Source of the DNA: Thermoanaerobaculia bacterium
GTDB lineage: Bacteria > Acidobacteriota > Thermoanaerobaculia > Multivoradales > SZUA-115
Assembly: GCA_044869805.1 (NCBI GenBank)
Contig: JBIOXV010000172.1
Location: forward strand, 14,715-78,714
Length of the DNA: 64,000 bases
Direction of reading: 5' to 3'
Shown here: one piece after another, positions 47,529 through 61,238 of the stretch
How the letters are laid out: each line of letters opens with the position of its first letter
Position numbering within the stretch: position 1 is the stretch's first letter
Notes under the pieces: model-generated
Databases searched by the model: none
Seen by the model: the letters and a program-made list of their open reading frames with translations, nothing else
Told to the model about the DNA's origin: nothing
Made by a program: the position numbers and the translations under genes

Positions 47529-49043
47529 TCAGAAGTGCCCCGCCAGGAGCGCCTCGTACAGTGCCACGTAGCGCTCGATCTGCGACTCCCAGGAGAAGTC
47601 CCGGCTCATGCCGGCGAGCATCAATCGCCGCCAGGCCTCGCGATCCTGGTAGAGGTCGAGCGCCTGGTTCACGGCCCACGCCAGGCCCTCGGGCGTGAAG
47701 TGCTCGAATACGAAGCCGGTGCCACTGCCGTCCCCGGGGTCGAAGGGCTCCACCGTGTCGGCGAGGCCGCCGGTCTTGCGCACCACGGGCGGCGTGCCGT
47801 AGCGCTGGCTGTACATCTGGTTCAAGCCGCAGGGCTCGTAGAGCGAGGGCATGAGGAAGATATCGGCGCCCGCCTCGATCAGATGGGCCAGCGGCTCGCT
47901 GTAACCGCGGTAGAAGACCACGCGGTCGGGGAAGCCGTGCTGCAGCCCGGCGAAGAACTCCTCGTACTTGCGCTCGCCGTTGCCGAGCACCACCAGGCGG
48001 GCGTTGCGTCGCGCCAGCAGGCCCGGCAGGACCTCGAAGAACAGGTCGAAGCCCTTCTGCGCGGTGAGGCGCGACACCACGCCCAAGAGTGGCACCCGCT
48101 CCTCGGCGGCCGAGCCGGGAGCGGCGAGCCCCAGGGAGGCCAGCCCCAGAGAAGCTAGCAAATCGGCCTTGTTGGCGGCCTTGCCGGAGAGGTCGGCCGC
48201 CGAGTAGGGGTGGGGGATGTGGGGGTCGTTCGCCGGGTCCCACTCCTCGGCGTCGATGCCGTTGACGATCCCCACCAGGTGGTCGCCGCGCGCCCGCAGC
48301 ACGCCCTGGAGCCCCATGCCGTAGCGGTCGGTCTGGATCTCCAGGGCGTGGGTGCGCGACACGGTGGTGATGACCCCGGCATAGAGCAGGCCGGTCTTCA
48401 AGAAGTTGATCCGCCCGGCCGCGAGGTCGTCCTGGTAGAGGTAGGAGGCGACCCCCGCGAGCCCCAGCTCGGGCAGCAGGCCGCTGCCGAACACTCCCTG
48501 GTAGCCCACGTTGTGCAGCGTGAGCACGGTCTTGGTGCCGGCGAACAGGCGGTCCCAGGCGTAGACGGTGCGCAGGTAGAGGGGCATCAAGGCGGTGTGC
48601 CAGTCGTGCGCGTGCACGATGTCCGGTGCCCAGCCCATGCGCTGGCAGCACTCGAGCGCCGCCCGCGACAGGAAGGCGAAGCGCAGCGCCTCGTCCGCGT
48701 CCTGCGTGTAGTAGCCCTCGCGGTCGTAGAGCGCCGGGCAGTGGATGAAGTAGAGCGGCGGCCCGCCGCCGTGGGTGCCGACGCCCGGCAGCGGCGCCGT
48801 GTAGGCGGAGAAGGAGAGGTGGCGGTCGCCCACCGAGATCGGCACGTCGCGCAGGAAGGCGACCGGGAAAAACGAGTGCTGCGAGCGATCGATCTTCGAG
48901 TACAGCGGCAGGAAGGCGCGCACGTCGTGCCCGGCGCGGTCGAGGTAGCGGGCGAGCGAGGCGGCGACATCGCCCAGGCCGCCGGTCTTGGCGAACGGGG
49001 TGAGCTCGGAGCTCGCCTGGCAGATGCGCAGCGGCCGGTCCAC
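47529..49043 (-). CDS. glgA: Glycogen synthase (ADP-glucose type, GT5)
   Basis: The GTG at 49041-49043 overlaps the glgC TAG by 1 nt. It contains SSELTPFAKTGGLGDV, HAHDWH, NGID...WDP, and PSLYEPCGLNQMY plus RKTGGLADTV. Only the last 504 aa of the 1172-aa track ORF belong to this gene. Confidence 0.92.
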   Translation of the reverse strand: MDRPLRICQASSELTPFAKTGGLGDVAASLARYLDRAGHDVRAFLPLYSKIDRSQHSFFPVAFLRDVPISVGDRHLSFSAYTAPLPGVGTHGGGPPLYFIHCPALYDREGYYTQDADEALRFAFLSRAALECCQRMGWAPDIVHAHDWHTALMPLYLRTVYAWDRLFAGTKTVLTLHNVGYQGVFGSGLLPELGLAGVASYLYQDDLAAGRINFLKTGLLYAGVITTVSRTHALEIQTDRYGMGLQGVLRARGDHLVGIVNGIDAEEWDPANDPHIPHPYSAADLSGKAANKADLLASLGLASLGLAAPGSAAEERVPLLGVVSRLTAQKGFDLFFEVLPGLLARRNARLVVLGNGERKYEEFFAGLQHGFPDRVVFYRGYSEPLAHLIEAGADIFLMPSLYEPCGLNQMYSQRYGTPPVVRKTGGLADTVEPFDPGDGSGTGFVFEHFTPEGLAWAVNQALDLYQDREAWRRLMLAGMSRDFSWESQIERYVALYEALLAGHF

Positions 49044-50308
49044 TAGACCTCCGTGCCGTCCGGCACCACCGCCCCGGCCGCCACCACGATGATGCCGTCG
49101 CGGATGCACCAGTTGTCGCCGTCGGCGTGGGTCACGCCGCCCGCGTTGACCAGCTTGACGCCGTTGCCGATGCGCACGTCGCGGTCGAGGATGGCGTGCT
49201 TGATCACGCAGTCGCGGCCGATACCGAGCGGGATGTTGCTGCCCGCCGCCTCGTCGGGCTCGAAGAAGTTGGCGCCCATCACCACGCTGTCCTCGACCAC
49301 CGAGCCGGAGCGGATCACCGAGCGCACCCCGAAGATCGAGCGCTGGATCTCGGCGCCGGTGATGATCGAGCCGTCGCACAGCACCGAGTGGTAGACCCGG
49401 CACTCGTTCACCTTCACCCCGGGCAGGAAGCGCGGGTGGGTGAAGATCGGGTAGTCGGGGCTGTAGAGGTTGAGCGGCGGCACCGGCACCGCGAGCTCCA
49501 GGTTCGAGCTGTGGAAGTTGCCGATGGTGCCGATGTCGCGCCAGTAGCCGTCGTAGCCGAAGGCGTAGATCTTCCGCTCGTGGATCGCCTTGGGGATGAT
49601 CTCTTTGCCGAAGTCGTGGTCGTCGGTGCCCACCAGCAGGTCGCGCAGCAGGCCGGGGCGGAAGACGTAGATGCCCATGCTGGCGAGGAGCGCGTCCTCC
49701 TCGGTTTCGAAGCCGAGCTTCTTCAGCGTGGCGGCGTCGGTAATCAGGCGGTCGAGGACCTCCTTCTCGGTCGGCTTCTCCACGAACTCGATGATGCGGC
49801 CGGCGGAGTTGACGCGCATGATCCCCAGGCCTTTGGCCTGTGACCGGGGCACCGCCTTGACCGCCACCGTCATGTCCGCCTTCTTCTGCCGATGGGTGTC
49901 GACGAAGTTCCTCATCTCCATCAGGTAGAGCTGGTCGCCGGACAGCACCAGCACCTCGGAAGGCTGCAGCAGGAGCAGCCGGTCCAGGTTCTGGCGCACG
50001 GCGTCGGCCGTGCCCTGGTACCAGTCGCGGCGCTCGAGGCCCTGCTCGGCGGCCAGGATGTTGACGAAGCCGCGCGAGAAGACGTCGAAGCGATAGGTCT
50101 GCGCGATGTGCTGGTGCAGGCTCGCCGAGTTGAACTGGGTCAAGACGAAGATGCGGGTGATGCCGGCGTGCAGGGAGTTCGAGATCGGCACGTCGATCAG
50201 CCGAAACTTGCCCCCCACCGGCACCGCCGGCTTGGCCCGGCTCTTGGTGAGCGGCCACAGGCGCGCTCCCTGCCCACCCCCCAGGATCGCGGTGACGACG
50301 TTCCTCAT
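49043..50308 (-). CDS. glgC: Glucose-1-phosphate adenylyltransferase
   Basis: 421-aa ORF. It contains ILGGGQGARLWPLTKSRAKPAVPVGGKFRLIDVPISN and a C-terminal left-handed beta-helix. SD GAGAGGGG lies upstream. Confidence 0.95.
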   Translation of the reverse strand: MRNVVTAILGGGQGARLWPLTKSRAKPAVPVGGKFRLIDVPISNSLHAGITRIFVLTQFNSASLHQHIAQTYRFDVFSRGFVNILAAEQGLERRDWYQGTADAVRQNLDRLLLLQPSEVLVLSGDQLYLMEMRNFVDTHRQKKADMTVAVKAVPRSQAKGLGIMRVNSAGRIIEFVEKPTEKEVLDRLITDAATLKKLGFETEEDALLASMGIYVFRPGLLRDLLVGTDDHDFGKEIIPKAIHERKIYAFGYDGYWRDIGTIGNFHSSNLELAVPVPPLNLYSPDYPIFTHPRFLPGVKVNECRVYHSVLCDGSIITGAEIQRSIFGVRSVIRSGSVVEDSVVMGANFFEPDEAAGSNIPLGIGRDCVIKHAILDRDVRIGNGVKLVNAGGVTHADGDNWCIRDGIIVVAAGAVVPDGTEV

Positions 50309-50347
50309 CGGCGCCCCTCTCTTGAAGCCAAGCCTCTGAGGTGGCAG

Positions 50348-50377
50348 ATCTTACTCGCACTCGCCCGCCCGGCCCAA
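50348..50377 (-). promoter_or_regulatory. Candidate promoter for glgC-glgA
   Basis: The reverse strand reads TTGGGC (50372-50377), 18 nt, TAAGAT (50348-50353). It lies 39 nt upstream of the glgC ATG. Confidence 0.25.
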
Positions 50378-50383
50378 GGCCGC

Positions 50384-50389
50384 TATACT
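50384..50389 (+). promoter_or_regulatory. -10-like TATACT 8 nt upstream of the ATP-grasp C start (possible leaderless transcript)
   Basis: TATACT, then ccccgccc, then the GTG at 50398. No SD and no convincing -35. Confidence 0.25.
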
Positions 50390-50397
50390 CCCCGCCC

Positions 50398-51618
50398 GTG
50401 CCGCACGTCGTCTTCGTAGCGCCGTTCCTGATGCCGGCCACGGCGCGCTTCGCGCAGGCCACGGCGAGCCTGCCGGGGGTCAAGGTCGGGCTCATCACCC
50501 AGGACCCGGCGGCCAAGATCCCGCCTTCGCTCGCCGCCTCGATCGCCGCCCACCGGCGGGTGGAGAACGCTTTCGACCCGGTGCGCTTGGCCGATGCGGC
50601 CCGCGACCTCGCGCGCTCGATCGGCGGCCTCGACCGGCTGATGGGGGCCCTGGAGCAGCTCCAGGTGCCGCTCGCCCAGGCGCGCGAGATCCTGGGGGTC
50701 GAGGGCATGCGGGTAGAGGCGGCGAAGAACTTCCGCGACAAGGCGCGCATGAAGACCGTGCTGCGGGAGGCCGGCCTGCCCTGCGCCCGCCACCGGCTGG
50801 CGGCTTCCGCCGAGGAGGCGCGCGACTTCGCGCGCGAGGTCGGCCTGCCGCTGGTGGTCAAGCCCCCGGACGGCGCGGGCGCCAAGGCCACCTTCAGGGT
50901 GGGCACGCCCGAGGCGCTGGAGGAGGCCTTGAAGGTCAACGCGCCGGCGCCCGGCCGCCCGGTGCTGCTCGAGGAGTTCGTCACCGGCGACGAGTACTCT
51001 TTCGAGACCGTTTCGATCGCCGGCCGGCCGGTGTGGTACTCCTCCACCCGCTACCTGCCGACGCCGCTCGAGGCGATGCACAACCCATGGATTCAGTGGT
51101 GCGTGCTGCTGCCTCGGGAGCGCGAGGACCCGCGCTTCGACGACGTCAAGGAAGTGGCTTTCAAGGGGCTCGCGGCGCTGGGCATGGGCACCGGCCTCTC
51201 GCACATGGAGTGGTTTCGGCGCCGCGACGGCTCGCTCGCCATCTCCGAGGTCGCCGCCCGCCCTCCGGGCGCGCAGATCACCACCCTGGTTTCGGTGGCG
51301 CACGAGTTCGACTTCCTCGCCGCCTGGGCACGCCTCATGGTGTTCAGCGAGTTCCATCCGCCGCCGCGCAAGTGGGCCTCCGGCGCCGCCTTCTTCCGCG
51401 GCATGGGCGGGAGCCGCGTCAAGGCCGTGCACGGCCTCGACCAGGCGCAGAAGGAGCTGGGGCCGCTGGTGGTCGAGGCCAAGCTGCCCAAGCCCGGCGC
51501 CCCCAAGTCCGACAGCTACGAGGGCGACGGCTACGCCGTGCTGCGCCACGAGAGCACCGAGACGGTACGGAAGGCGCTGATGCGGCTGGTGGCGCTGGTG
51601 CGCGTCGAATACAACTGA
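50398..51618 (+). CDS. ATP-grasp ligase, paralog C (~406 aa)
   Basis: I chose the GTG at 50398 by alignment with the paralog N-termini (VPHVVFVAPFLMP). It contains VGLPLVVKPPDGAGAKAT, LEEFVTGDE and SHMEWF...EVAARPPG. Confidence 0.82.
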   Translation: MPHVVFVAPFLMPATARFAQATASLPGVKVGLITQDPAAKIPPSLAASIAAHRRVENAFDPVRLADAARDLARSIGGLDRLMGALEQLQVPLAQAREILGVEGMRVEAAKNFRDKARMKTVLREAGLPCARHRLAASAEEARDFAREVGLPLVVKPPDGAGAKATFRVGTPEALEEALKVNAPAPGRPVLLEEFVTGDEYSFETVSIAGRPVWYSSTRYLPTPLEAMHNPWIQWCVLLPREREDPRFDDVKEVAFKGLAALGMGTGLSHMEWFRRRDGSLAISEVAARPPGAQITTLVSVAHEFDFLAAWARLMVFSEFHPPPRKWASGAAFFRGMGGSRVKAVHGLDQAQKELGPLVVEAKLPKPGAPKSDSYEGDGYAVLRHESTETVRKALMRLVALVRVEYN

Positions 51619-51628
51619 GATCCCGTCG

Positions 51629-52846
51629 ATGAACGTGGTGATGATCGCTCCGGCCTACCCGTGGGAGATGACCCTCTTCACCCGCGGGCTGGCGCGGGTG
51701 GGCGCCAAGGTGCTCGGCGTGGGGGACACGCCGGCCGCGGGGCTGTCGCCGATGGTGAAGGAGAGCCTCGCCGCCTACCTGCACGTGCCCTCGCTGTGGG
51801 ACGAGGAGGCAGTGATCGAGGCCGTGCGCCGGCACCCGGCGGCGCGCTCGCTCGACCTCGTGGAATGCCTGTGGGAGCCGGGCATGATCCTCGCCGCCCG
51901 GCTGCGCGAGCGGCTGGGCCTGCCCGGCATGACGGTCGCCGAAACCGTTCCCTTCCGCGACAAGGGGCGAATGAAACAGGTGCTCGACGCCGCCGGCATC
52001 CGCACTCCGCGTCACTTCCGCGCCGCGTCGACCCGCGAGGTGCGCGCCGCGGCCGAACGCATCGGCTTCCCGCTGATCGTCAAGCCGATCGCCGGCGCCG
52101 GCTCCAAGGACACCCATCGGGTCGACGACGACGCGGAGCTCGAGCAGGTCATCGCCAAGGTCCGGCACGTCGAGGAGGTGAGCGTCGAGGAGTACATCGA
52201 GGGCGAGGAGCACACTTTCGACACCATCTGTGCCGACGGCGAGATCCGCTATTTCAACCTCGCCTGGTACCGGCCGCGGCCGCTGCTGCAGCGCACCGTC
52301 GAGTGGATCAGCCCGATGACCGTCACCCTGCGGGACGTGTTCCGCGACGACCTCGCACCGGGCCGAGAGATGGGCCAGGCGGTGCTCGAGGCCCTGGGAT
52401 TCAAGACCGGCTTCACCCACATGGAGTGGTTCCTGAAGCCTGACGGCGAGGCGGTGTTCGGCGAGATCGGCGCCCGCCCGCCCGGCGCGCGCTCGACCGA
52501 GCTGATGAACTACGGCTGCGACATCGACGTCTTCACCGGCTGGGCCGAGGCGGTGTGCCACCGGCGATTCAGCCAGAAGGTGGTGCGCCGCTACAACAGC
52601 GCCGTGATCTTCAAGCGCGCCCAGGGCCAGGGCCGCATCCAGCGCATCGAGGGCCTGGAGCGCCTGCTCGGCCGCTTCGGCGAGGCGATCGTCTCCGTCG
52701 ATCTCCTGCCGATCGGCTCGCCGCGCCGCAACTGGCTCCAGACCCTGCTCTCCGACGGCCACGTCATCCTCCGCCACCCGCACCTACCGACCTGCATCGA
52801 GATGGCGGACACGGTGGCCGAGGAGCTGCAGCTCTACGCTGCCTAG
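51629..52846 (+). CDS. ATP-grasp ligase, paralog D (405 aa)
   Basis: It begins MNVVMIAPAYPWE and contains IGFPLIVKPIAGAGSKDT, VEEYIEGEE and THMEWF...EIGARPPG. It starts 10 nt after paralog C. Confidence 0.85.
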   Translation: MNVVMIAPAYPWEMTLFTRGLARVGAKVLGVGDTPAAGLSPMVKESLAAYLHVPSLWDEEAVIEAVRRHPAARSLDLVECLWEPGMILAARLRERLGLPGMTVAETVPFRDKGRMKQVLDAAGIRTPRHFRAASTREVRAAAERIGFPLIVKPIAGAGSKDTHRVDDDAELEQVIAKVRHVEEVSVEEYIEGEEHTFDTICADGEIRYFNLAWYRPRPLLQRTVEWISPMTVTLRDVFRDDLAPGREMGQAVLEALGFKTGFTHMEWFLKPDGEAVFGEIGARPPGARSTELMNYGCDIDVFTGWAEAVCHRRFSQKVVRRYNSAVIFKRAQGQGRIQRIEGLERLLGRFGEAIVSVDLLPIGSPRRNWLQTLLSDGHVILRHPHLPTCIEMADTVAEELQLYAA

Positions 52847-54420
52847 CGCAGCGCCAGCCGCAGCGCTGCGACCTCCCCCGACAGCTCGTCGGCCACCGCG
52901 ACCGCGACGGCCTCGCTGTCGGCGGCGAGCACGAGCTCCGTGACGTAGCTGAGCCGGCAGGGCTCTGCCTCCATCGTGGGGCGCGTGGCGCGCAGCGCCA
53001 GGCGCTCGACCGGAGAGGCCCTGCCCCCCGGCTCCCTCACCGCCACCGCCAGCGTCAGCCGCGCCTGCTCGCCGCTCGCCGTGGTCTCGAAGCGCACGTG
53101 GTCGCAGGGCAGAGCGAAATCGAGCGGAAACGCGATCGTCCCGGTGCCGCGGGAGACGGCGGGACCGGCGACCGCGGTGAGCCGCAGCGGGTTCTCGCCA
53201 TTGCCCCGCCAGAGCGCCCCCAACGCGTGGGCAGCGGGCGAAGGGCCGGCCTCGGCGAGCGCCACCGTGGACGCGTGGCGTACTTCCAGTCGGGGCCGCG
53301 AGACCTCGACCTTGATCATCGGCGAAGCACCCTCCACGGCTGCCGGCGCCGCGAAGCGCAGCCGGTAGGTGCCGCCGAGCAGCGTCTCCAGCCGTTCCAT
53401 CGCGGCCTGCGGGTGGCCGGCGCGGAGCAGCTCGCCGCCGCTCGACCGGGCGAGCTCCGCGAGATGCGGCTCGAAGAGGGTGCGGCGCTCGAGCGATCCC
53501 GCGAGGCCGCCGCGCAGCTCTGCCGCAGCCGGCTCCACGATCCACGGAAAGAACGTCACCTGCGCCTGGCCGGCCGCGGCGAGCAAAGCAGCGAGGCGGG
53601 GCGGCACGTTTCTTCCCTGGCCCGAGGGCAGCGGCGGCTGCGACACCAGATAGCGCAGCGACGGGCTGTCCTGGGGCGACCCAGGCAACGGGGTCTCCGT
53701 TCCGCTCACCACGCGCACGCTGAAGCTCCTCGGGGCCTCGCTGGTCGAGCGCGGATCGCTGGCGTAGGGCAACCCGCCCGTCACGTAGAGGAGCGCCTTC
53801 GGGCCGGCGAGGTCACCGACCGCCTGGAGCAGGGACTCGAGCCCGTCGAGCGAGGCACGGCTGGCGCGGCGCAGGGCGTCGTCGAGGCTGGCGCGCTCTC
53901 CCAGCGCGACGGGTGCGTGGTCCGGCTGCTCGGGGCTCCGCCTTCGCCACTGCCGGTCGACCTCGACCGCGAGCGCGGTGGCCCGGCGCCCTGAGAGCTC
54001 CGCGAGCCGCAACTGGGCCGTGGAGCCGTCGCGGGCAAGCGGCGCCACCAGCTCGAGGCTGCCGTCGAAGGAGGCGAGGAGCACGCGATCGCCGCGCTGG
54101 GCGCGCGCCGAGGTGAAGCGCGCCAGCGCATCGACCAGGCCCTGAAGGCGGCCGGGGGGCAGAAGCTGGTGATCGACCAGGACGACGAAGGTCTGACTTC
54201 CGCCCGCCGGCTGCTGCAGCTCCTGGACCGGCAGCCCGGCGAGGGAGACGCGGAATTCGGCCGCCTCGAGGTCGGTCACCGGCCGGCCCTGACGGTCGAG
54301 CACCAGGGCGGCGAGCTCGACGCTCGGCAGGAAGGAGTGCGGCGCTCCCTCCTGGGCTATGGCCGCGCCCAGCCACGCGACTCCACTCAGAACGAGACCG
54401 CCGAGCCGGGATGCCTTCAC
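52843..54420 (-). CDS. VWA-domain protein of the acidobacterial VWFA-related type (TIGR03436-like)
   Basis: The GTG at 54420 overlaps the upstream TGA (GTGA). It has a signal peptide (LVLSGVAWLGAAIAQ). The N-terminal pattern is VELAALVLDRQGRPVTDLEAAEFRV...QTFVVLVDH. Confidence 0.7.
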   Translation of the reverse strand: MKASRLGGLVLSGVAWLGAAIAQEGAPHSFLPSVELAALVLDRQGRPVTDLEAAEFRVSLAGLPVQELQQPAGGSQTFVVLVDHQLLPPGRLQGLVDALARFTSARAQRGDRVLLASFDGSLELVAPLARDGSTAQLRLAELSGRRATALAVEVDRQWRRRSPEQPDHAPVALGERASLDDALRRASRASLDGLESLLQAVGDLAGPKALLYVTGGLPYASDPRSTSEAPRSFSVRVVSGTETPLPGSPQDSPSLRYLVSQPPLPSGQGRNVPPRLAALLAAAGQAQVTFFPWIVEPAAAELRGGLAGSLERRTLFEPHLAELARSSGGELLRAGHPQAAMERLETLLGGTYRLRFAAPAAVEGASPMIKVEVSRPRLEVRHASTVALAEAGPSPAAHALGALWRGNGENPLRLTAVAGPAVSRGTGTIAFPLDFALPCDHVRFETTASGEQARLTLAVAVREPGGRASPVERLALRATRPTMEAEPCRLSYVTELVLAADSEAVAVAVADELSGEVAALRLALR

Positions 54421-55046
54421 CAGCGCAAGGTTACTCCGGCCGTGGCATCGGCCTGGTAGAGGTCGCCCCCCACGCTCTGCGGCAGTCCCGTCCACCAGCC
54501 TCGCCCTTCGAAGCGCAGGCTCACGCGCTCGGTGAGCGCGACCTTGAGGCCCAGCCCCAGGCTGGCTGCAGGGTGCTCGCCCTCCGGCCAGGTGTGCAGG
54601 AAGGTGCGGCGCCCCGAGGTCGCGAGGTGCGCCAGCCCCACGGTGGCAGCGGCAAAGGGGCTGAGCCGCTCTCCGGGGCGCTGGTAGACGACCCCGACCT
54701 GGAAGTGGGTGGTGGTAAGCGTGTTTTCGTCGAACACCACCGGCTCGACCGGGAGCGTGTGCGGGTCGTCGACGAAGCCGAGGTCGCTCTCTTGCCGGCT
54801 CACCAAGGCTTCCAGGCCCCATCCGCCACGCAGCTCATGGTCGACGATGAGGCCGAAGGCGGGCCCGGAGTCCGCCGCCACGTTGATGGGGCAAGGCGCC
54901 TGGATCGAGGCGAGGCAGACGACCGACTGGGCGTAGGCGACGTCGCCGTCGCGGTAGGCGACGGAGGGAGTGATCTCGACGCCGTGCGCGGTCGTGGTGC
55001 AGAGTGAGGCGAGAAGCAGGCCGGGAAGGAAGCGGAACCAACGCAT
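54417..55046 (-). CDS. Outer-membrane beta-barrel protein (OmpW/porin-like)
   Basis: The ATG at 55046 is preceded by AAGGAG. It has a signal peptide (MRWFRFLPGLLLASLCTTTAHG), alternating beta-strand patterns and a C-terminal aromatic residue (GVTLRW). Confidence 0.7.
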   Translation of the reverse strand: MRWFRFLPGLLLASLCTTTAHGVEITPSVAYRDGDVAYAQSVVCLASIQAPCPINVAADSGPAFGLIVDHELRGGWGLEALVSRQESDLGFVDDPHTLPVEPVVFDENTLTTTHFQVGVVYQRPGERLSPFAAATVGLAHLATSGRRTFLHTWPEGEHPAASLGLGLKVALTERVSLRFEGRGWWTGLPQSVGGDLYQADATAGVTLRW

Positions 55047-55167
55047 GGGCTCTCCTTTCGCAGAGGGATTGCCTCGTTTGCGGTCCCTCGGGCGCCGAAT
55101 CGTGGGCACCTCCCCTCAAGATCCCGTGCCTCCGCGCAAGTGTTAGGACCAGAACGCGAGCACTGCG

Positions 55168-57789
55168 TCATCGCCAGTCGCCCTGCAGCTCGAATGCGGC
55201 CCAGAACGAGGGGGCGCGCCAGCGAGCGTCGCCCCAGAGGGCGGCGTGGGCGGCCCGCAGCGCCGCCGCCGCGGGCAGGCGTTCGGCGAGCAGGCCGGTG
55301 TAGAAGCGGCCCATGAACGCGGCGGCGGCCTCGTCCGCCACCGGCCACGAGCTGACCAGCACGCGCTCTGCCCCGGCGGCGAGAAAGCCGCCCGGCAGCC
55401 CCACGATGCCCTCGCTCTCCACTTGCTGGCCGAGCGCCGTGCGGCAGGCGGAGAGGGTGACGAGGTCCGCCGCCAGGTCGAGGCGTGCGATCTCGAGCAG
55501 CCGCAGCCAGCCGTCTCGCGGCCGGCCCTGCCGATCGACGAGCGAGAGGGCGAGCCCCGAGACCTCCGGCTGGTGGGCGTCGATCAGGCCATGGGTGGCG
55601 AGGTGCAGGGTGTGGTAGGAGCCGAGCGCGCCGCCGCGCAGGAGCTCGGCATCGGCCTCGAAGTCGAGGGCGACGAAGGCCTCGCCGGCCGGTGGCAGCC
55701 GGGCCAGGATCTCGGCTTCCCGCCGCGTCGCCGGAAGCCGCGGCAGATAGCCAGCCGGTCCGGCCGCCGGCCGGGGCGGCGACAGCCGCGGGTCCGCGGC
55801 GGAGAACACCGGATCGGCGAGGATCGCTAGCGTGCGCCCGGGCTGAGGCCGGCGAGCCGGGCGCTCCCGCAGCGCGGCGAGGACCCCGGCAGAAGGCAGC
55901 GACACCAGCTCTCGGGCGACACCCAGCGGCCGCCGCAGCGAATCGCCCGGCAGCGGCAAAGCCGCGAACGGCAGGTGGGCCAGGGCGCCGTCCGGCACCA
56001 CGACGACGCGAGGCCGGCTGAGCTCGGCGGCCACGGGCCCGAGCAGCAGCTCCGCGAGCGCCGCCGCAGCCACCTCGGCCGGGGCGCGAAAGGCGCGCTC
56101 GTGGCTGCGTGCCAGGAGCTCGTGCAGCCGGACGGCGGCGGGCTCGATCTCGCCTCGGCGAGGGAGCACGGCCACCTGCAGCGAGCCCGGCGTCAGCACC
56201 CACACGTAACTCGCCCGGCGGCCGAGGAAGTACTCGAGGAGGACCGTGTCGCCGTCGAGAAGGCCAGCGGCGCCGGCGTGGTCGAGGGCCGCGGGGCGCA
56301 GGGCCGCGGCCGGCAGGGCTGCTCGCCAAGACGCTTCCGCGTCGCGGTACTCCTCGAGCAGGGCCTCCAGCTCGCGCGCCCGCTCGGACGATTCTCTCTC
56401 CCGCCCGGCCTCGGCCAGCCGGCGTTGCTCGCCGGCCAGGGCGCTTGCCCGGCGCGCGAGAACGGTGAGCGCCTGCGCAGCGGGGTCCTCGTCGTCCCCC
56501 CGGCGCAGCCACAACTGCTCGCGCAGGCTCTGCGCTCGCGCGGCCTCCGCGGCCTCCAGTGCGCGGCCTGCGAAACCCTGCCCCGGCCGCTGCTGCTCGA
56601 GCTCGATCAGCAGCTCCACCAACAGCTCGTAGAGATCGCGCTGCGAGGCCACCCAGGAGGATCGAAGGTCGGGCCGCAGCACCCTGGCCCGGACCGAGCG
56701 CACCAGCGCCAGTGCCTCGTTCACCCTCTCCACGGCGGCCTCGGGCCGGCCGCGGTCGCGCGCCAGGCGCGCCTGCCGGGCGAGGGTGAAGGCCTGCTCC
56801 CAGGGATTCGCAAGGCGCCGCTGCACGGCGAGCGCGGTCGCCAACAGCTCCTCCGCCGCCGCCAGCCGACCCTGCCGGCGTTCGGCCTCTCCGAGGTTGC
56901 CGAGGGTGGCCGCCTCGCCTCGCAGATCGTGCTCCAGGCGCCGCAAATGGAGGGCGGCCTCGAACGCCTTCTTGGCTGCGGCCGGCTCCCCCATCTCGTG
57001 ATGCGCGAGGCCCAGGTTGTTGAGCAGGTCGGCCTCGGCCCGCCGGTCGGCCACGGAGCGATGAATCGCCAGCGCCAGGTCGAACAGCTCGCGCGCCTGC
57101 TTCGCCTCGCCTGACCGCAGCCGGACTCGGCCCAGGTTGTTGAGCGCCGCTGCTTCGCCGGCGCGGTCGCCGAGCTCACGGGTCAGCTTCAGGGCGCCGT
57201 GCAGCTTCTGCTCAGCCGGCAGCCGGCGGCCGAGACCCGTGAGCAGGACTCCGAGGTTGTTGAGCGCGGCGGCCTGGCCTGCCCGGTCGCTCAGCTCCTT
57301 GGTGAGCCACAGCGCTCGGCGGTGGAGCTCGAGGGCTTGCTGCACCTCGCCGAGGTCGGCATAGAGCGTCGCGAGATTGTGGGTGGTCTCGGCCTCCGCC
57401 GCAGGATCGCGCGCGTCCCGGCGCAGCGCCAGCGCCTGCTCGAGCAACTTCACCGCTTCGACGGCGCCGCCTTCCTCGACCGCGAGCAGACCGAGGTTGT
57501 TGAGCACCGCCGCCTCGCCTTGCCGGTGGCCGGCGGCGCGATAGATCTCGAGCGTCCGCTCGTAGATCACCTCGGCTGCCGGCCGATCGCCTCGCTCGGC
57601 CGCGACCTGGGCCTCTCGAAAGAGCTCGGCGGCGAGAGCGATCTCACCGGCCGAAGGCTCCTGGGCCGAAGCGCCTTGGGCCGAAGCAGCTGGGGTCGAA
57701 GCCACTGGGGCCAGGACCGGCAGCGCAAGAAAGACCAGCCACAGGGCGCCAGCGCGGGCCGGGAGAGAGAGCGGCTCCCAGCCGAGCAT
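55168..57789 (-). CDS. Exported TPR-repeat CHAT-domain (caspase-like) protease
   Basis: ATG at 57789 with a signal-like N-terminus (ALWLVFLALPVLAPVAS). It has about 9 TPR units (recurring NNLG...). The C-terminal CHAT domain retains His (TLHLATHG) and Cys (LVTLSACRTA). The 218 N-terminal aa of the track ORF overlap the anti-sigma gene out of frame. Confidence 0.85.
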   Translation of the reverse strand: MLGWEPLSLPARAGALWLVFLALPVLAPVASTPAASAQGASAQEPSAGEIALAAELFREAQVAAERGDRPAAEVIYERTLEIYRAAGHRQGEAAVLNNLGLLAVEEGGAVEAVKLLEQALALRRDARDPAAEAETTHNLATLYADLGEVQQALELHRRALWLTKELSDRAGQAAALNNLGVLLTGLGRRLPAEQKLHGALKLTRELGDRAGEAAALNNLGRVRLRSGEAKQARELFDLALAIHRSVADRRAEADLLNNLGLAHHEMGEPAAAKKAFEAALHLRRLEHDLRGEAATLGNLGEAERRQGRLAAAEELLATALAVQRRLANPWEQAFTLARQARLARDRGRPEAAVERVNEALALVRSVRARVLRPDLRSSWVASQRDLYELLVELLIELEQQRPGQGFAGRALEAAEAARAQSLREQLWLRRGDDEDPAAQALTVLARRASALAGEQRRLAEAGRERESSERARELEALLEEYRDAEASWRAALPAAALRPAALDHAGAAGLLDGDTVLLEYFLGRRASYVWVLTPGSLQVAVLPRRGEIEPAAVRLHELLARSHERAFRAPAEVAAAALAELLLGPVAAELSRPRVVVVPDGALAHLPFAALPLPGDSLRRPLGVARELVSLPSAGVLAALRERPARRPQPGRTLAILADPVFSAADPRLSPPRPAAGPAGYLPRLPATRREAEILARLPPAGEAFVALDFEADAELLRGGALGSYHTLHLATHGLIDAHQPEVSGLALSLVDRQGRPRDGWLRLLEIARLDLAADLVTLSACRTALGQQVESEGIVGLPGGFLAAGAERVLVSSWPVADEAAAAFMGRFYTGLLAERLPAAAALRAAHAALWGDARWRAPSFWAAFELQGDWR

Positions 57790-57818
57790 GGCCAAGGCTG
57801 CCCAGCGCGTCGTCAAGG

Positions 57819-58613
57819 TCAGGGCTCCTCGAAGACGGCGCGATACTCCTCGATCAACGACTCGCTCCCGCCGCGAACGCCCAGCAGGCGGAAGCGCAGC
57901 TCTCCCACGGCGAGGCGCTGCGGCAGGAGCAGCGAGAAGCTCCCGGACTCGCCCGGCTCGACGGCACCCTGCCACAGGGGCTTGCCCGACCTTTCCTCGA
58001 CCGAGAGACGATAGGAGGTGAAGGCCTGGGCGTCGGCGGGCGGCGTGAGCAGGACGGTGACCCAGCGGGCCGCGCGGGGCAGGGAGACGCTCTGCGGCCC
58101 CTCCTCGCCCCGTGGGCGGAAGCTCCCGGGGTAGAGGTCGACGACCGCCGCACCCGCCTGCGGCTCGAACGCCGCACGCAGCCGCGAATTCTCGGAGGCG
58201 AGCGAGAAGGCCCACAGGCCTAGCCCCGCGGCAGCCAGGAAGAGCGCGGCTACAAGGCTCGGCACGAGCCTGTTCGCGAGCTGTCGCCGAGATCCCGGAA
58301 GCGAAGCCGGGGAAGGCGCGGCCGGCGGGAAGGCGCGGGCCACCACGGCGTCGACCGCGGCCGCCAGCGCCTCCGGCTCGAGGTCCACATCCGGCTGAGC
58401 GTCGGCGGCGAGCGCGCGCAGCTCGAGCGCCCGGTCCGTGCACTCGCGGCAGGCGGCGAGGTGGGCCTCGATCTGGTCCCGCTCCGCCGCCGCCAGCTCG
58501 GCCTGGGCGAAGGCTCCGAGCGCAGCGGGCGAGGGATGCTGCTCGGAGCCCTCGGCGAGGAGGGCGAAGGCCTGGTAGAGCTCTGCCTCGGAAAGTGGAT
58601 CTCGCTCGTTCAC
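57819..58613 (-). CDS. Anti-sigma factor (zf-HC2 type, single-pass membrane protein)
   Basis: 264-aa ORF with HLAACRECTD (HxxxCxxC) and a TM segment (LVPSLVAALFLAAAGLGLWAF). The periplasmic domain is about 125 aa. It starts 4 nt after the sigma gene stop. Confidence 0.8.
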   Translation of the reverse strand: MNERDPLSEAELYQAFALLAEGSEQHPSPAALGAFAQAELAAAERDQIEAHLAACRECTDRALELRALAADAQPDVDLEPEALAAAVDAVVARAFPPAAPSPASLPGSRRQLANRLVPSLVAALFLAAAGLGLWAFSLASENSRLRAAFEPQAGAAVVDLYPGSFRPRGEEGPQSVSLPRAARWVTVLLTPPADAQAFTSYRLSVEERSGKPLWQGAVEPGESGSFSLLLPQRLAVGELRFRLLGVRGGSESLIEEYRAVFEEP

Positions 58614-58617
58614 GGCC

Positions 58618-59268
58618 TCATCCTTCGCCTCTTCGGTCCTCGCCGGCGAGCTCGGCCTCGAGCCGCTTCCGCGCCTGGTACAGGTGCGCCTTCACGGTAT
58701 CCACGGTCAGCCCCATGAGGACCGCGATCTCGCCGTAGCTCCTCTCCTGGTACACCCGCAGCGCAAGGCAGGTGCGCATCCGCGCCGGCAGGCGCTCGAT
58801 CGCCTGCCGCAGCCGCTCCCGCCGTTCCTTGGCGAGCGCCTGGCGCAGCGGGTCGTCCGCGAGCGGTGCCCGAGCCACCTCCGCCAAGGCCGATCCCTCC
58901 GGCAGATCCACCATGGCCGTCTCGCCCTGGCGTTTGTGCGCGCGTACGCGGCGCACCGCCTTGCGCAGCACGTTGGCCGCGATCTCGAACAGCCAGGGCT
59001 CGAAGCGCGTGGCCTGGCGGACCTCCGCCAACCCTCTTACGATCCCGAGGAACGTCTGCTGGGTTAGATCGCGCGCCTCCTCGTCGGCGAGGCCCCGCCG
59101 CACGAAGTAGCGGTGCACCGGGCGGTAGTAGGCCTCGACTAAGCGCCGGAAGCTCGCTTCGCGGTCGCTCCCCCGCCGCCACGCGGCGACCAGCCGATCG
59201 ATCTCCTCGCGCTCCAAGCGCCGCCAGTCTATTGCTCTGCCGTGACCGGTCTCTGCAAGTGACCCCAA
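58618..59268 (-). CDS. ECF (sigma-70 family) RNA polymerase sigma factor 1
   Basis: Region 2 reads FRRLVEAYYRPVHRYFVRRGLADEEARDLTQQTFL. Region 4 reads SYGEIAVLMGLTVDTVKAHLYQARKRL. There is no ATG. Candidate TTG starts are at 59268 and 59217, so the start is uncertain. Confidence 0.75.
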   Translation of the reverse strand: MGSLAETGHGRAIDWRRLEREEIDRLVAAWRRGSDREASFRRLVEAYYRPVHRYFVRRGLADEEARDLTQQTFLGIVRGLAEVRQATRFEPWLFEIAANVLRKAVRRVRAHKRQGETAMVDLPEGSALAEVARAPLADDPLRQALAKERRERLRQAIERLPARMRTCLALRVYQERSYGEIAVLMGLTVDTVKAHLYQARKRLEAELAGEDRRGEG

Positions 59269-59274
59269 CGCTCC

Positions 59275-59288
59275 CGCGCCCTGGCGCG
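59275..59288. promoter_or_regulatory. Palindrome CGCGCC-CT-GGCGCG centred between the two divergent ECF sigma genes
   Basis: Perfect 6+6 inverted repeat at 59275-59288. It could be an operator, or a chance event in GC-rich DNA. Confidence 0.2.
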
Positions 59289-59299
59289 TCTTAGAGAGC

Positions 59300-59878
59300 G
59301 TGGAACGAACGGTGGTGCTGGGAGAGCTGACGCTGCGACCGATCGAGGCAGAGGAAGCGGGCGAACGGTTGGAGCGGCTCTTCGACGCCCACCACCAACG
59401 CCTGTTTCGCCTGGCGCGGCGGCTCAGCTCGGACGCCGAGGAGGCCCGCGACCTGGTACAGGAGACCTTCCTGCGCGCGGCGCGGCGGCCGGCGGCGGTC
59501 CCCGAGGGCGAGAGTGGCGGCGAGGCCTGGCTGGTGCGCGTACTGGTCAACCTCTGCCGCGATCGTTACCGGCGCCGCTCCGTGCGCCAGGAGTCGCGGC
59601 CCGCCCTGGCGGTGCCGAGTGCCGTCCAGGACCCGGCGGAGGCGGCCGTGGCCAGGGCGTCGGTGACCGCGGCGCTGGCGCGGCTTCCGGCGCGGCGGCG
59701 GGCCGTGGTGGTGCTCGCCGAGCTCGAGGAGCTGCCGAACGTGGAGGTGGCGCGGCTCCTGGGGATGGCCAAGGTCACCGTGCGCTGGCATCTCGCCGCC
59801 GCGCGCAAGCAGCTCGCCGTGATCCTGCGGCCGGTGCTGAAGGCGCCCGGTGCTCGCATCGAGGAGGTGGAACCATGA
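59300..59878 (+). CDS. ECF (sigma-70 family) RNA polymerase sigma factor 2
   Basis: Region 2 reads LFDAHHQRLFRLARRLSSDAEEARDLVQETFL. Region 4 reads LPNVEVARLLGMAKVTVRWHLAAARKQL. The start is a GTG at 59300; an in-frame TTG further downstream with GAGGAAG upstream is an alternative. Confidence 0.78.
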   Translation: MERTVVLGELTLRPIEAEEAGERLERLFDAHHQRLFRLARRLSSDAEEARDLVQETFLRAARRPAAVPEGESGGEAWLVRVLVNLCRDRYRRRSVRQESRPALAVPSAVQDPAEAAVARASVTAALARLPARRRAVVVLAELEELPNVEVARLLGMAKVTVRWHLAAARKQLAVILRPVLKAPGARIEEVEP

Positions 59879-60465
59879 GCTCGAACCGCAAGCCCGAGAC
59901 GGACCTGACCCGGCTGCTGCGGCGGGGAGACCCGGCCTTGGAAGGCGAAAGTCTGCCGCCCACCGACGTGGCGCGGATGCGCCGCAGCATGCTCGCCGCG
60001 ATCGAGGCGGCGGTCAGGCCACCCTTGCTCCCCTGGCGGCCGGTACTCGCCGCGGCCGGCAGCGTGGCCCTCGTCTTCGCCTTGGGGGTCGCCTGGTGGA
60101 GGCTCGGACCGCCGGCCGGATCGAGAGAAGAGAAGCTGGCCGTCGTAGTCGGCGTACCAGAACCGCCTGGCCAGATGCTTCCCGCCGAGCCGGCAGGCGC
60201 CAGCCGCGGAACCGCGGCGGCGCAGCAGCAGCTCACCCGCAGTGCACCAGCTCCAGGCGCCATCACCCCTGCGTCGCGGCCGGCTCGCAAGCCGCGGCCC
60301 GCTCGGCCGGGTCCCGCTGCCCCGCGGGCGGCGCCGGCCTCCCCGGCGGGGGCCGCGGTCCATGCCGCACGCCAGGTCGAGTTCGAAACCCCGGGCGGGA
60401 CCCGTGTCGTCTGGGTCCTCGACCCTTACTTCTCTCTCCACCCAACGGAGGTTCAAACCCGATGA
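59875..60465 (+). CDS. Single-pass membrane protein, candidate non-canonical anti-sigma factor
   Basis: The ATG overlaps the sigma-2 stop (ATGA) and is preceded by GAGGAGG. It has a TM segment (VLAAAGSVALVFALGVAWW) and a Pro/Ala-rich periplasmic region. No zf-HC2 Cys/His motif. Confidence 0.65.
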   Translation: MSSNRKPETDLTRLLRRGDPALEGESLPPTDVARMRRSMLAAIEAAVRPPLLPWRPVLAAAGSVALVFALGVAWWRLGPPAGSREEKLAVVVGVPEPPGQMLPAEPAGASRGTAAAQQQLTRSAPAPGAITPASRPARKPRPARPGPAAPRAAPASPAGAAVHAARQVEFETPGGTRVVWVLDPYFSLHPTEVQTR

Positions 60466-61238
60466 AGATCCTGCGACTGCCTTGCCGGCCCTGGTCTCTG
60501 CTCGCCCTGGGCCTAGTCTGGGCCGTGGCCCTCGCGCTCCCCATGCCGCTTTCCGCGGCAGAAGGCGGGAAGGTGGATGTCTACGAGCGCGAATACATGC
60601 TGCGCCAGCTCTCGTCGCACGAGGCCGAGGTCCTGCTGTGGGACCAGTGCCCCAAGCCGCCCACCGGAGTGTGCCGTGTGCGCGGCACCGGGCTGCGGGA
60701 CGGCGTGTGGGTCATCGTCGTGTACGCGGACGACGCCACCCACGCCCGCATCGCTCGCGCCCTCGCAGCGCAAGACGTGTTGCCGGCCACCCACGCCTTC
60801 CAGGTGGTCTTGCTCCTCGCCGACCGCCAGACCGGCGGCATCCCCAAGGAGCTGCCTGCCAACACGCAGAAGGCCCTGCAGGATGTGGTGGGCTTCCTGC
60901 CCTTCACCCGCTTCCGCGTGCTCGACTCGGGCTGGGTGCGCACCGCGGGCGACGGCCAGTTGCTGCTGGGAGGCTTGGCCGGCCCACCCATCCAGGTGAC
61001 GCTCGAGCTCGGCCGCCGTGGGGGCGACCAGATGTACATGCAAGGCTTCCAGGTGGCAGCCCCGATCGTGCCGCCGAGCTACGATCCCAAGGACGCGAAG
61101 AACCCGCCGCACTGGCCGATGCGCATCCTGATCAACACCGCCTTCGGGATCAGGCTCGGCGAAACGCTGGTGGTCGGCACCTCGAGGCTCGACGGAGGCG
61201 ACGAGGCGCTGGTAGCGCTGGTGAGCGCCGTGGAGTAA
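60462..61238 (+). CDS. Secreted protein of unknown function (weak resemblance to secretin N-domain modules)
   Basis: The ATG overlaps the upstream stop (ATGA), with GGAG upstream. It has a signal peptide (LLALGLVWAVALALPMPLSAA). Only the last 258 aa of the 462-aa track ORF belong to this gene. Confidence 0.65.
   Translation: MKILRLPCRPWSLLALGLVWAVALALPMPLSAAEGGKVDVYEREYMLRQLSSHEAEVLLWDQCPKPPTGVCRVRGTGLRDGVWVIVVYADDATHARIARALAAQDVLPATHAFQVVLLLADRQTGGIPKELPANTQKALQDVVGFLPFTRFRVLDSGWVRTAGDGQLLLGGLAGPPIQVTLELGRRGGDQMYMQGFQVAAPIVPPSYDPKDAKNPPHWPMRILINTAFGIRLGETLVVGTSRLDGGDEALVALVSAVE

Follow-up and report, generated by a model that had tools for sequence, protein, structure and literature searches.

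A conserved cluster of an ECF sigma factor, a ZAS-type anti-sigma factor and a separate TPR-CHAT protein in Acidobacteriota

The five-gene block and its sigma factor

The DNA considered here (the window) is a stretch of 64,000 nucleotides from contig JBIOXV010000172.1 of a Thermoanaerobaculia bacterium. It carries a block of five genes, all on the minus strand, which begins with a sigma factor of the extracytoplasmic function (ECF) type, an anti-sigma factor and a caspase-like protein combining tetratricopeptide repeats (TPR) with a CHAT domain (TPR-CHAT). These three genes form a conserved core found in other genomes, and the five-gene unit is an elaboration of one sub-lineage. In the order of reading, the block comprises an ECF (group IV) sigma factor, RpoE/AlgU-like (58618-59268; 216 aa from TTG 59268 or 199 aa from TTG 59217), a single-pass anti-sigma factor of the zinc-binding anti-sigma (ZAS) type (57819-58613, 264 aa), the TPR-CHAT protein of clan CD (55168-57816; 882 aa from TTG 57816 or 873 aa from ATG 57789), a small protein resembling an outer membrane (OM) beta-barrel (54417-55046, 209 aa), and a VWA-like protein of acidobacterial type (52843-54420, 525 aa).

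With a G+C content of about 72%, the window gives noisy six-frame lists of open reading frames. An independent gene call on DNA identical to the window (L166) contains the same five genes and differs in two starts. According to this call and to the alignment of orthologues, the true start of the sigma gene is likely TTG 59217, and TPR-CHAT begins in the same call at TTG 57816. The first-pass annotation, made from the letters of the sequence, had described five tight, co-directional genes, and both the translations and the gene call agree with it. The 4-nt gap between the sigma and anti-sigma genes, the 121-nt gap between TPR-CHAT and the OM barrel gene and the GTGA overlap of the last two genes are all as it had given them; its 29-nt gap between the anti-sigma gene and TPR-CHAT corresponds to the start at ATG 57789 and shrinks to 2 nt if TTG 57816 is used. 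No terminator-like site was found between the five genes in a scan of positions 52500-59700.

The sigma factor, at 199-216 aa, displays the regions 2 and 4 that characterise ECF (group IV) members of the sigma-70 family. Pfam gives 41 bits for Sigma70_r2 and 57 bits for Sigma70_r4_2, and the NCBIfam model TIGR02937 reaches 95.8 bits, its cutoff being 42.9 (E=2e-27). Among solved structures, the protein is nearest to AlgU (6in7) and to RpoE of E. coli (1or7). No sigma-70 consensus promoter is present in 52500-59700, and no ECF-type -35/-10 motif common to the relatives was found upstream of their sigma genes. TATACT-like -10 boxes of housekeeping type lie near the sigma start codons in L045, L050, L073, L082, L086 and L083 and hint that a constitutive promoter might act in these relatives instead of, or besides, ECF autoregulation. 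Upstream of the OM barrel gene, an intergenic block is conserved between L002 (8700-8800) and L170 (4005-4075) and reads TCGGAACTACAG...GGATCAG...TCTGA...CGCCGACCCG. Its GGAAC and TCTGA boxes resemble the -35 and -10 elements of RpoE promoters, but they are ~32 nt apart; the spacing is wrong for an ECF promoter, and the 121-nt gap of the window holds no copy of the block.

The anti-sigma factor and the TPR-CHAT protein

The N-terminal zf-HC2 domain of the anti-sigma factor, read from the sequence in the first-pass annotation, is recovered above the Pfam cutoff (26 bits against 22.2, E=1e-5, residues 31-58). The zinc motif H-x3-C-x2-C (QIEAHLAACRECTD), which reads HLAACREC, is encoded at 58434-58475 (minus strand, as for all features of the block). 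An N-terminal zinc motif of this kind, together with a gene placed 4 nt after that of the sigma factor, is what characterises ZAS (class I) proteins. A transmembrane (TM) segment (LVPSLVAALFLAAAGLGLWAF, 58194-58286), apparent in the translation and as a long helix in the structural model, separates this part from a periplasmic immunoglobulin (Ig)-like beta-sandwich (residues 156-262, 57828-58148; predicted local distance difference test (pLDDT) 78-91). The complete AlphaFold model (pLDDT 71) contains the helices of the anti-sigma domain (ASD), the TM helix at residues 113-147 and eight strands at 156-262.

In the alignment of the anti-sigma family, A122 and W134 are conserved, P151 of the juxtamembrane linker is invariant, and conservation extends through the periplasmic sandwich, the signature domain of the family. 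Foldseek searches with the sandwich retrieved generic matches only, to Ig-like, fibronectin type III (FN3)-like and carbohydrate-binding module (CBM)-like folds. A word-indexed protein search, with 6-17 matches, had made the family look rare; this was overturned when 1.84 billion representatives were searched exhaustively with a profile, the result being 313 clusters at E<=1e-30 (3547 at E<=1e-10). With the single exception of P0279, which has 1348 aa and to which we return below, the best 150 representatives are full-length proteins with a size of ~250-300 aa.

The third protein of the core combines a CHAT domain (PF12770, E=2e-60, residues 574-871, 55177-56070) with a TPR array (TPR_12, E=2e-34; also TPR_10 and TPR_1). 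Its AlphaFold model (pLDDT 86.9, predicted template modelling score (pTM) 0.85) shows disordered residues 1-43, the TPR helices, a helical scaffold and then a caspase-like alpha/beta domain. The array, which had been counted as about nine repeats, is present at residues 47-367 (56689-57651) with 16 helices in the model, that is ~8 repeats. The His/Cys dyad previously noticed in the strings LHLATHG and TLSACR corresponds to His733 (motif HLATHG, 55585-55605) and Cys782 (motif TLSACRTA, 55435-55458). Placement of the dyad in a model had been set beforehand as a check, and each of the two residues comes directly after a beta-strand, as in caspase folds; the domain and a His and a Cys following consecutive strands, which define CHAT proteins of clan CD, are found in both sequence and model. 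Both residues are invariant in alignments of 28 homologues and of 9 sigma-linked homologues, and all sigma-linked members that were examined show strong conservation of the motifs HxATHG and LSAC+TA. We predict from these features that the protease is catalytically active.

TPR-CHAT also begins with a sequence resembling a signal peptide (57670-57789), in which the hydrophobic region ALWLVFLALPVLAPVA is followed by ASA-QG. Already pointed out in the earlier annotation, this trait is widespread: an N-terminal hydrophobic stretch is present in 98 of 120 TPR-CHAT homologues, the orthologue P0002 keeps VLFLLALPVLAP at this position, and sigma-linked relatives have either a signal peptide (ASA-QD in L004) or a lipobox-like motif (LAAGC in L082). 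Such an N-terminus argues against a cytoplasmic location, and export of TPR-CHAT is a well-supported prediction. Homologues are distributed among Thermoanaerobaculia, Holophagales, Vicinamibacterales and other Acidobacteriota.

A three-gene core kept in different orders

Absence of the five-gene order from other genomes had been named in the first-pass annotation as a result that would speak against a single unit. This order does recur, in L001, L002 and L170. L001 (74% identity) has all five genes plus the flanks of the window, whereas L002 (47% identity) and L170 (44%) carry sigma, anti-sigma, CHAT, OM barrel and VWA-like genes between different flanks; the sigma gene of L170 is cut off and L002 has one additional gene of 161 aa. 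The OM barrel and VWA-like genes are kept with the core in four loci, the window being one of them, and in three genomic contexts. Elsewhere, only three of the five genes form the core.

This became apparent from surveys starting with each of the three proteins. On the CHAT side, we examined 80 genome loci encoding TPR-CHAT proteins with a hidden Markov model (HMM) of the anti-sigma family. A family member lies directly upstream of TPR-CHAT in 13 of the 80 loci, while sigma and anti-sigma genes lie directly downstream in 15; in a few further loci the anti-sigma gene is on the opposite strand or beyond a second CHAT gene. The matches beside TPR-CHAT, also those to distant members of the family, span positions 35-260 of the HMM, beta-sandwich included. 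A first pass with phmmer had located the sigma/anti-sigma pair at ~5 of the 80 loci, an underestimate, as the family HMM brought the number to 28 clear cases, with several adjacent ones in addition. The order CHAT, sigma, anti-sigma is that of many 'long' TPR-CHAT proteins (~1050-1130 aa) that have an extra N-terminal beta-domain, and was observed in L012, L025, L030, L033, L046, L047, L052, L057, L063, L069 and others.

On the anti-sigma side, the order sigma, anti-sigma, TPR-CHAT is found in L163, L164, L165, L167 and L168. A large TPR homologue stands beside the anti-sigma gene in L169, where it is cut by the contig end; the contig of P0250 carries a gene of 211 aa, followed by a large one (at least 879 aa) known by its length only, and that of P0286 is too short to show the neighbour of the anti-sigma gene. 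On the sigma side, a metagenome scan gave as candidates only the five closest relatives (E<=1e-32). Among these, the anti-sigma gene is present in L084, L085 and L086 and the CHAT gene in L086 and L087, and neither was detected in L083; the gene between sigma and CHAT in L087 matches the family only by an HMM whose building included that very gene. For more distant ECF factors in the same scan, no CHAT gene was found nearby in 74 of 75 cases.

The two proteins are joined in P0279, the metagenomic representative of 1348 aa, known from the protein alone. It is a natural fusion of the anti-sigma factor with TPR-CHAT and displays, in this order, the zinc motif, the TM helix, the sandwich, the PPC-like beta-domain of the long TPR-CHAT proteins, the TPR array and CHAT. 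No internal signal peptide is present at its junction, and the TPR-CHAT module is placed after the TM helix. P0279 is the only fusion among the best 150 representatives of the family. That linkage persists when the genes change places speaks strongly for a functional coupling. The earlier suggestion that the periplasmic domain of the anti-sigma factor works together with CHAT is strongly backed by this order-independent linkage and by the fusion.

Lineage-specific genes downstream of the core

The OM barrel-like and VWA-like genes, found with the core in the window, L001, L002 and L170, are cargo of one sub-lineage and not part of the core. The fourth protein of the block matches OMP_b-brl (PF13505) with 27.2 bits, under the curated cutoff of 28.7 (E=5e-6), and the same Pfam match is found in its orthologues of L001 and L170; it has a signal-like N-terminus ending in AHG/VE and a C-terminal Trp. 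The fifth matches nearly the whole profile of TIGR03436 (acidobact_VWFA; positions 9-317, 309/324), also with a score below the curated cutoff (55.8 bits against 81.25, E=5e-15), as well as VWA_2 of Pfam weakly, and its N-terminus shows a hydrophobic stretch followed by AIA-QE. Its metal ion-dependent adhesion site (MIDAS) is degenerate, unlike that of typical members, with VLVDHQLLP in place of DxSxS, and none of the four orthologues (window, L001, L002 and L170) keeps the MIDAS serines. Identity in the alignments of the OM barrel and VWA-like proteins is 27-30%. Both proteins are probably exported, judging from their N-termini. That they would build a trans-envelope complex, as first imagined, stays speculation, the VWA MIDAS being degenerate.

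In sister loci, other genes occupy this place. A protein of ~475 aa follows CHAT in L163, L164, L165, L168, L087 and L082, usually with a small open reading frame before it; the L163 copy, the only one scanned, has a Peptidase_C25-like C-terminus. It is followed in L163 by a caspase-like protein of ~700 aa with a Peptidase_C14 domain, which matches the PADLOC 'caspase' model PDLC02987 (E=1e-34), and up to three clan-CD peptidases are present per cluster. Large uncharacterised genes are found at the C14 position in L087, L164 and L168, and proteins related to the L163 C14 protein come directly after CHAT in L045 and L073. The corresponding cargo regions are L163:12229-16034, L168:5883-9551, L164:9341-12424, L087:6531-10011, L045:10604-12637 and L073:11524-13599.

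Relationship to known systems

The properties of this core echo those of DdvS/DdvA of M. xanthus, in which a ZAS anti-sigma factor is fused to a periplasmic TPR-CHAT of ~900 residues (PMC11506125). Its authors, who looked for fused forms only, propose that CHAT, once activated by a signal, serves as site-1 protease ahead of RseP; they found it in a resting, incomplete state, and mutation of the dyad had no effect in unperturbed cells (PMC11506125). When the TPR-CHAT model was compared with the PDB by Foldseek, DdvA was the best match (8rot_A, E=8e-16, 20% identity), followed by Csx29 (8eey_B, E=5e-15, TM ~0.44-0.52) and separase. DdvA was missed when the PDB was searched with single sequences and profiles: TPR matches swamped the whole-protein queries, and queries or profiles restricted to CHAT gave nothing, or marginal craspase matches (E~0.1).

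Both systems associate an ECF sigma factor with a zinc-binding N-terminal ASD carried by a single-pass membrane protein, and with a TPR-CHAT containing a His-Cys dyad, periplasmic in DdvA and predicted to be so in the window. The proposed logic, CHAT as a sensing site-1 protease ahead of RseP, is the same, and the anti-sigma family of the window includes a fused relative, P0279. In contrast to DdvA, the TPR-CHAT of the window is a separate gene, with a stop codon between the two and a signal-like N-terminus of its own. Its anti-sigma factor has a beta-sandwich of ~110 aa where DdvA has a flexible linker and scaffold; the neighbours are OM barrel and VWA-like genes with glucan-type flanks instead of an island of CRISPR and CBASS (cyclic oligonucleotide-based antiphage signalling system) genes; and the host is Acidobacteriota-like, that of DdvA belonging to Myxococcota. 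In the literature searched, we found no description of such a split arrangement of anti-sigma factor and TPR-CHAT. As a counterpart of fused DdvA, the split form is new and uncharacterised. The exported location itself, which the first-pass annotation had set against the cytoplasmic CHAT effectors, is not a first, because in DdvA a TPR-CHAT already lies in the periplasm and is linked to an ECF sigma/anti-sigma pair (PMC11506125).

In the type III-E craspase, experiments have shown that the TPR-CHAT protein Csx29 cuts Csx30, which inhibits an ECF-like sigma factor (PMC10028731). The fold is common to both systems, and the control that craspase exerts on an ECF-type sigma factor by cutting its inhibitor is of the kind proposed for the window. 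However, craspase is cytoplasmic, bound to Cas7-11 and activated by target RNA, and Csx30, a soluble protein, has no relation to ZAS anti-sigma factors. PADLOC gave no defence-system match for the five proteins. No CRISPR-related match came from PADLOC on these proteins or from Rfam on the window, cas genes, Cas7-11 and arrays not having been specifically searched; Rfam detected no RNA family in the window.

RpoE and AlgU are both regulated by site-1/site-2 proteolysis. The RpoE/RseA/DegS/RseP and AlgU/MucA/AlgW systems share with the window an RpoE/AlgU-like sigma factor, a single-pass anti-sigma factor with a periplasmic domain, and a periplasmic protease, proposed in the case of the window, for the first, signal-dependent cut. 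Unlike theirs, which is a PDZ serine protease, the candidate of the window is a cysteine protease of clan CD whose sensor would be the TPR array, and it is encoded within the operon; its putative substrate carries an Ig-like sandwich which is not RseA-like. Another parallel is ECF54, whose genes have carboxypeptidase-regulatory, subtilase and CHAT proteins nearby, lack an anti-sigma factor and are proposed to be under proteolytic control (PMC8999054). In both cases ECF sigma genes are conserved beside CHAT proteins; compared by description and not by ECF-group HMM, the window differs in having its anti-sigma family and in the absence of a subtilase or carboxypeptidase-like gene from the operon. 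The main text of the paper on ECF re-classification makes no mention of CHAT.

A possible route from envelope signal to sigma factor

We consider TPR-CHAT most likely to be a partner of the periplasmic domain of the anti-sigma factor. In a more precise scheme, which in our estimation stands about evenly between right and wrong, it would be both the sensor and a trans-acting site-1 protease of the anti-sigma factor, leading to release of the sigma factor. The ZAS protein would hold the RpoE-like sigma factor at the inner membrane, and exported TPR-CHAT would dock on or near its beta-sandwich. The 8-repeat TPR array would bind a periplasmic, probably proteinaceous cue, and capture of this cue would activate the His733/Cys782 site. 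Activated CHAT would then clip the anti-sigma factor outside the membrane, as a site-1 protease supplied in trans, and RseP-type intramembrane and cytoplasmic proteolysis would free the sigma factor. The latter would induce the operon, including its lineage cargo, here the OM barrel and VWA-like genes.

Several points weigh against this scheme. In 43 of the 80 TPR-CHAT loci, all the cyanobacterial ones included, there is no adjacent sigma/anti-sigma pair; with about half of the homologues in this situation, the protease family also works outside the sigma circuit. The linker between the membrane and the beta-sandwich is short (~15-20 residues). We identified no ECF-type promoter upstream of the sigma or OM barrel gene. 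The role of DdvA as a site-1 protease is itself still a hypothesis (PMC11506125), and no relation of the CHAT domain to DdvA was detected at the sequence level, so that the parallel between the two systems may be convergent.

The main rival explanation places CHAT at the other end of the circuit. An ordinary stress pair would sense by other means, and the CHAT, OM barrel and VWA-like genes would be those switched on, forming an exported proteolytic or adhesive apparatus engaged, for example, in VWA processing, surface remodelling or attack on competitors. The CHAT gene of the window indeed lies downstream of the sigma/anti-sigma pair, at a place often taken by regulon genes in ECF operons; the 43 loci in which TPR-CHAT has no such neighbour fit this possibility, and the genes after CHAT, coding for exported proteins or, in sister loci, for clan-CD peptidases, resemble an effector set. 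Yet the cargo varies by lineage while CHAT remains constant, and because it stays when the cargo changes, CHAT behaves as part of an invariant sensing core. Moreover, adjacency is kept in the 15 loci flipped to CHAT, sigma, anti-sigma, TPR-CHAT co-occurs with a specific periplasmic domain of the anti-sigma factor, and P0279 joins the two, as in DdvA. Invariance of CHAT, order-independent linkage and fusion weaken the idea of CHAT as a mere output, which we regard as unlikely, though deserving attention. Linkage and fusion are as compatible with binding as with cleavage. TPR-CHAT could bind the sandwich as a non-catalytic co-sensor or protector, in the manner of RseB and RseA, a ligand on the TPR array causing its release and another site-1 protease making the cut; the dyad would then be kept for another purpose or for autoprocessing only. 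TPR arrays are protein-binding modules, and the resting or incomplete state of the DdvA CHAT, with a dyad mutation silent in unperturbed cells (PMC11506125), is compatible with such a role. On the other hand, the invariant His and Cys and the conserved HxATHG and LSAC+TA motifs of sigma-linked members argue for selection on catalysis, and the sole demonstrated case, that of Csx29 on Csx30, is proteolytic (PMC10028731); a purely binding role thus seems to us quite improbable.

Fortuitous adjacency of the five genes, or their belonging to separate transcription units without common function, could be suspected from the 121-nt gap between the CHAT and OM barrel genes and from the OM barrel and VWA family matches, both under curated cutoffs. 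This is very hard to reconcile with the recurrence of the five-gene order in L001, L002 and L170 among different flanks, with junctions of 4 nt, 2 or 29 nt and a GTGA overlap, and with the result of the terminator scan, and we give it almost no credit.

Returning to TPR-CHAT as a site-1 protease, the split system bears on a question left by the work on DdvA, namely whether a periplasmic CHAT is truly the signal-dependent site-1 protease of its own anti-sigma factor. Here the presumed protease and substrate are separate, so binding and cleavage are testable in trans with a Cys-to-Ala control, and for this reason it is better suited than fused DdvA to test the idea. The anti-sigma family comprises hundreds of clusters at 50% identity and concerns a sizeable share of the exported TPR-CHAT proteins in Acidobacteriota. 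To our knowledge, hardly any work exists on signal transduction in this phylum, which is abundant in soil. ECF sigma factors and TPR-CHAT are now seen linked in three forms, the cytoplasmic craspase, fused DdvA and the split form, which point to a recurrent regulatory design.

A wider picture, tentative and rather doubtful at this stage, would be that of a large undescribed family, mainly of Acidobacteriota, in which a free exported TPR-CHAT serves as trans site-1 protease, the sister operons constituting an envelope-triggered 'extrinsic' caspase cascade. If true, this would be the first cysteine or caspase-type trigger of regulated intramembrane proteolysis. The sigma factor released in sister operons would switch on the C25-like protein and the C14 caspase, for defence or programmed cell death, and the version of the window with its OM barrel and VWA-like genes would represent a variant whose output is surface remodelling.

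Flanking genes and other features of the window

The five-gene block has glucan-type flanks: two ATP-grasp genes and glgC on one side and a GH77 gene (malQ) on the other. glgC (49043-50308, minus strand) lies beyond the ATP-grasp pair, whose tandem copies, both on the plus strand, are found between it and the VWA-like gene (copy 1, 50341-51618; copy 2, 51629-52846). Copy 2 and the VWA-like gene are convergent, with stop regions that share 4 nt (52843-52846). The block had been described as interrupting glucan genes; this is correct for the window and for L001, a close relative, and does not extend to L002 and L170, whose flanks are unrelated.

On the other side of the block, a second ECF module is encoded on the plus strand. 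ARAGORN reported there a 93-nt 'tRNA-Gly(ccc)' at 60311-60403 (+), inside the coding region of a 196-aa protein; Rfam gives no tRNA at this place and we rejected it as a probable false positive in GC-rich DNA. The module consists of sigma-2 (59300 or 59312 to 59878), the 196-aa protein (59875-60465), which has one TM helix, and a 258-aa protein with a signal peptide (60462-61238), whose gene overlaps the preceding one by ATGA; neither of these two proteins has a Pfam match. The module is conserved in L001 and absent from L002 and L170, and for that reason does not belong to the CHAT system. Sigma-2 is divergent from the sigma gene of the five-gene block, the two being separated by ~31-94 bp.

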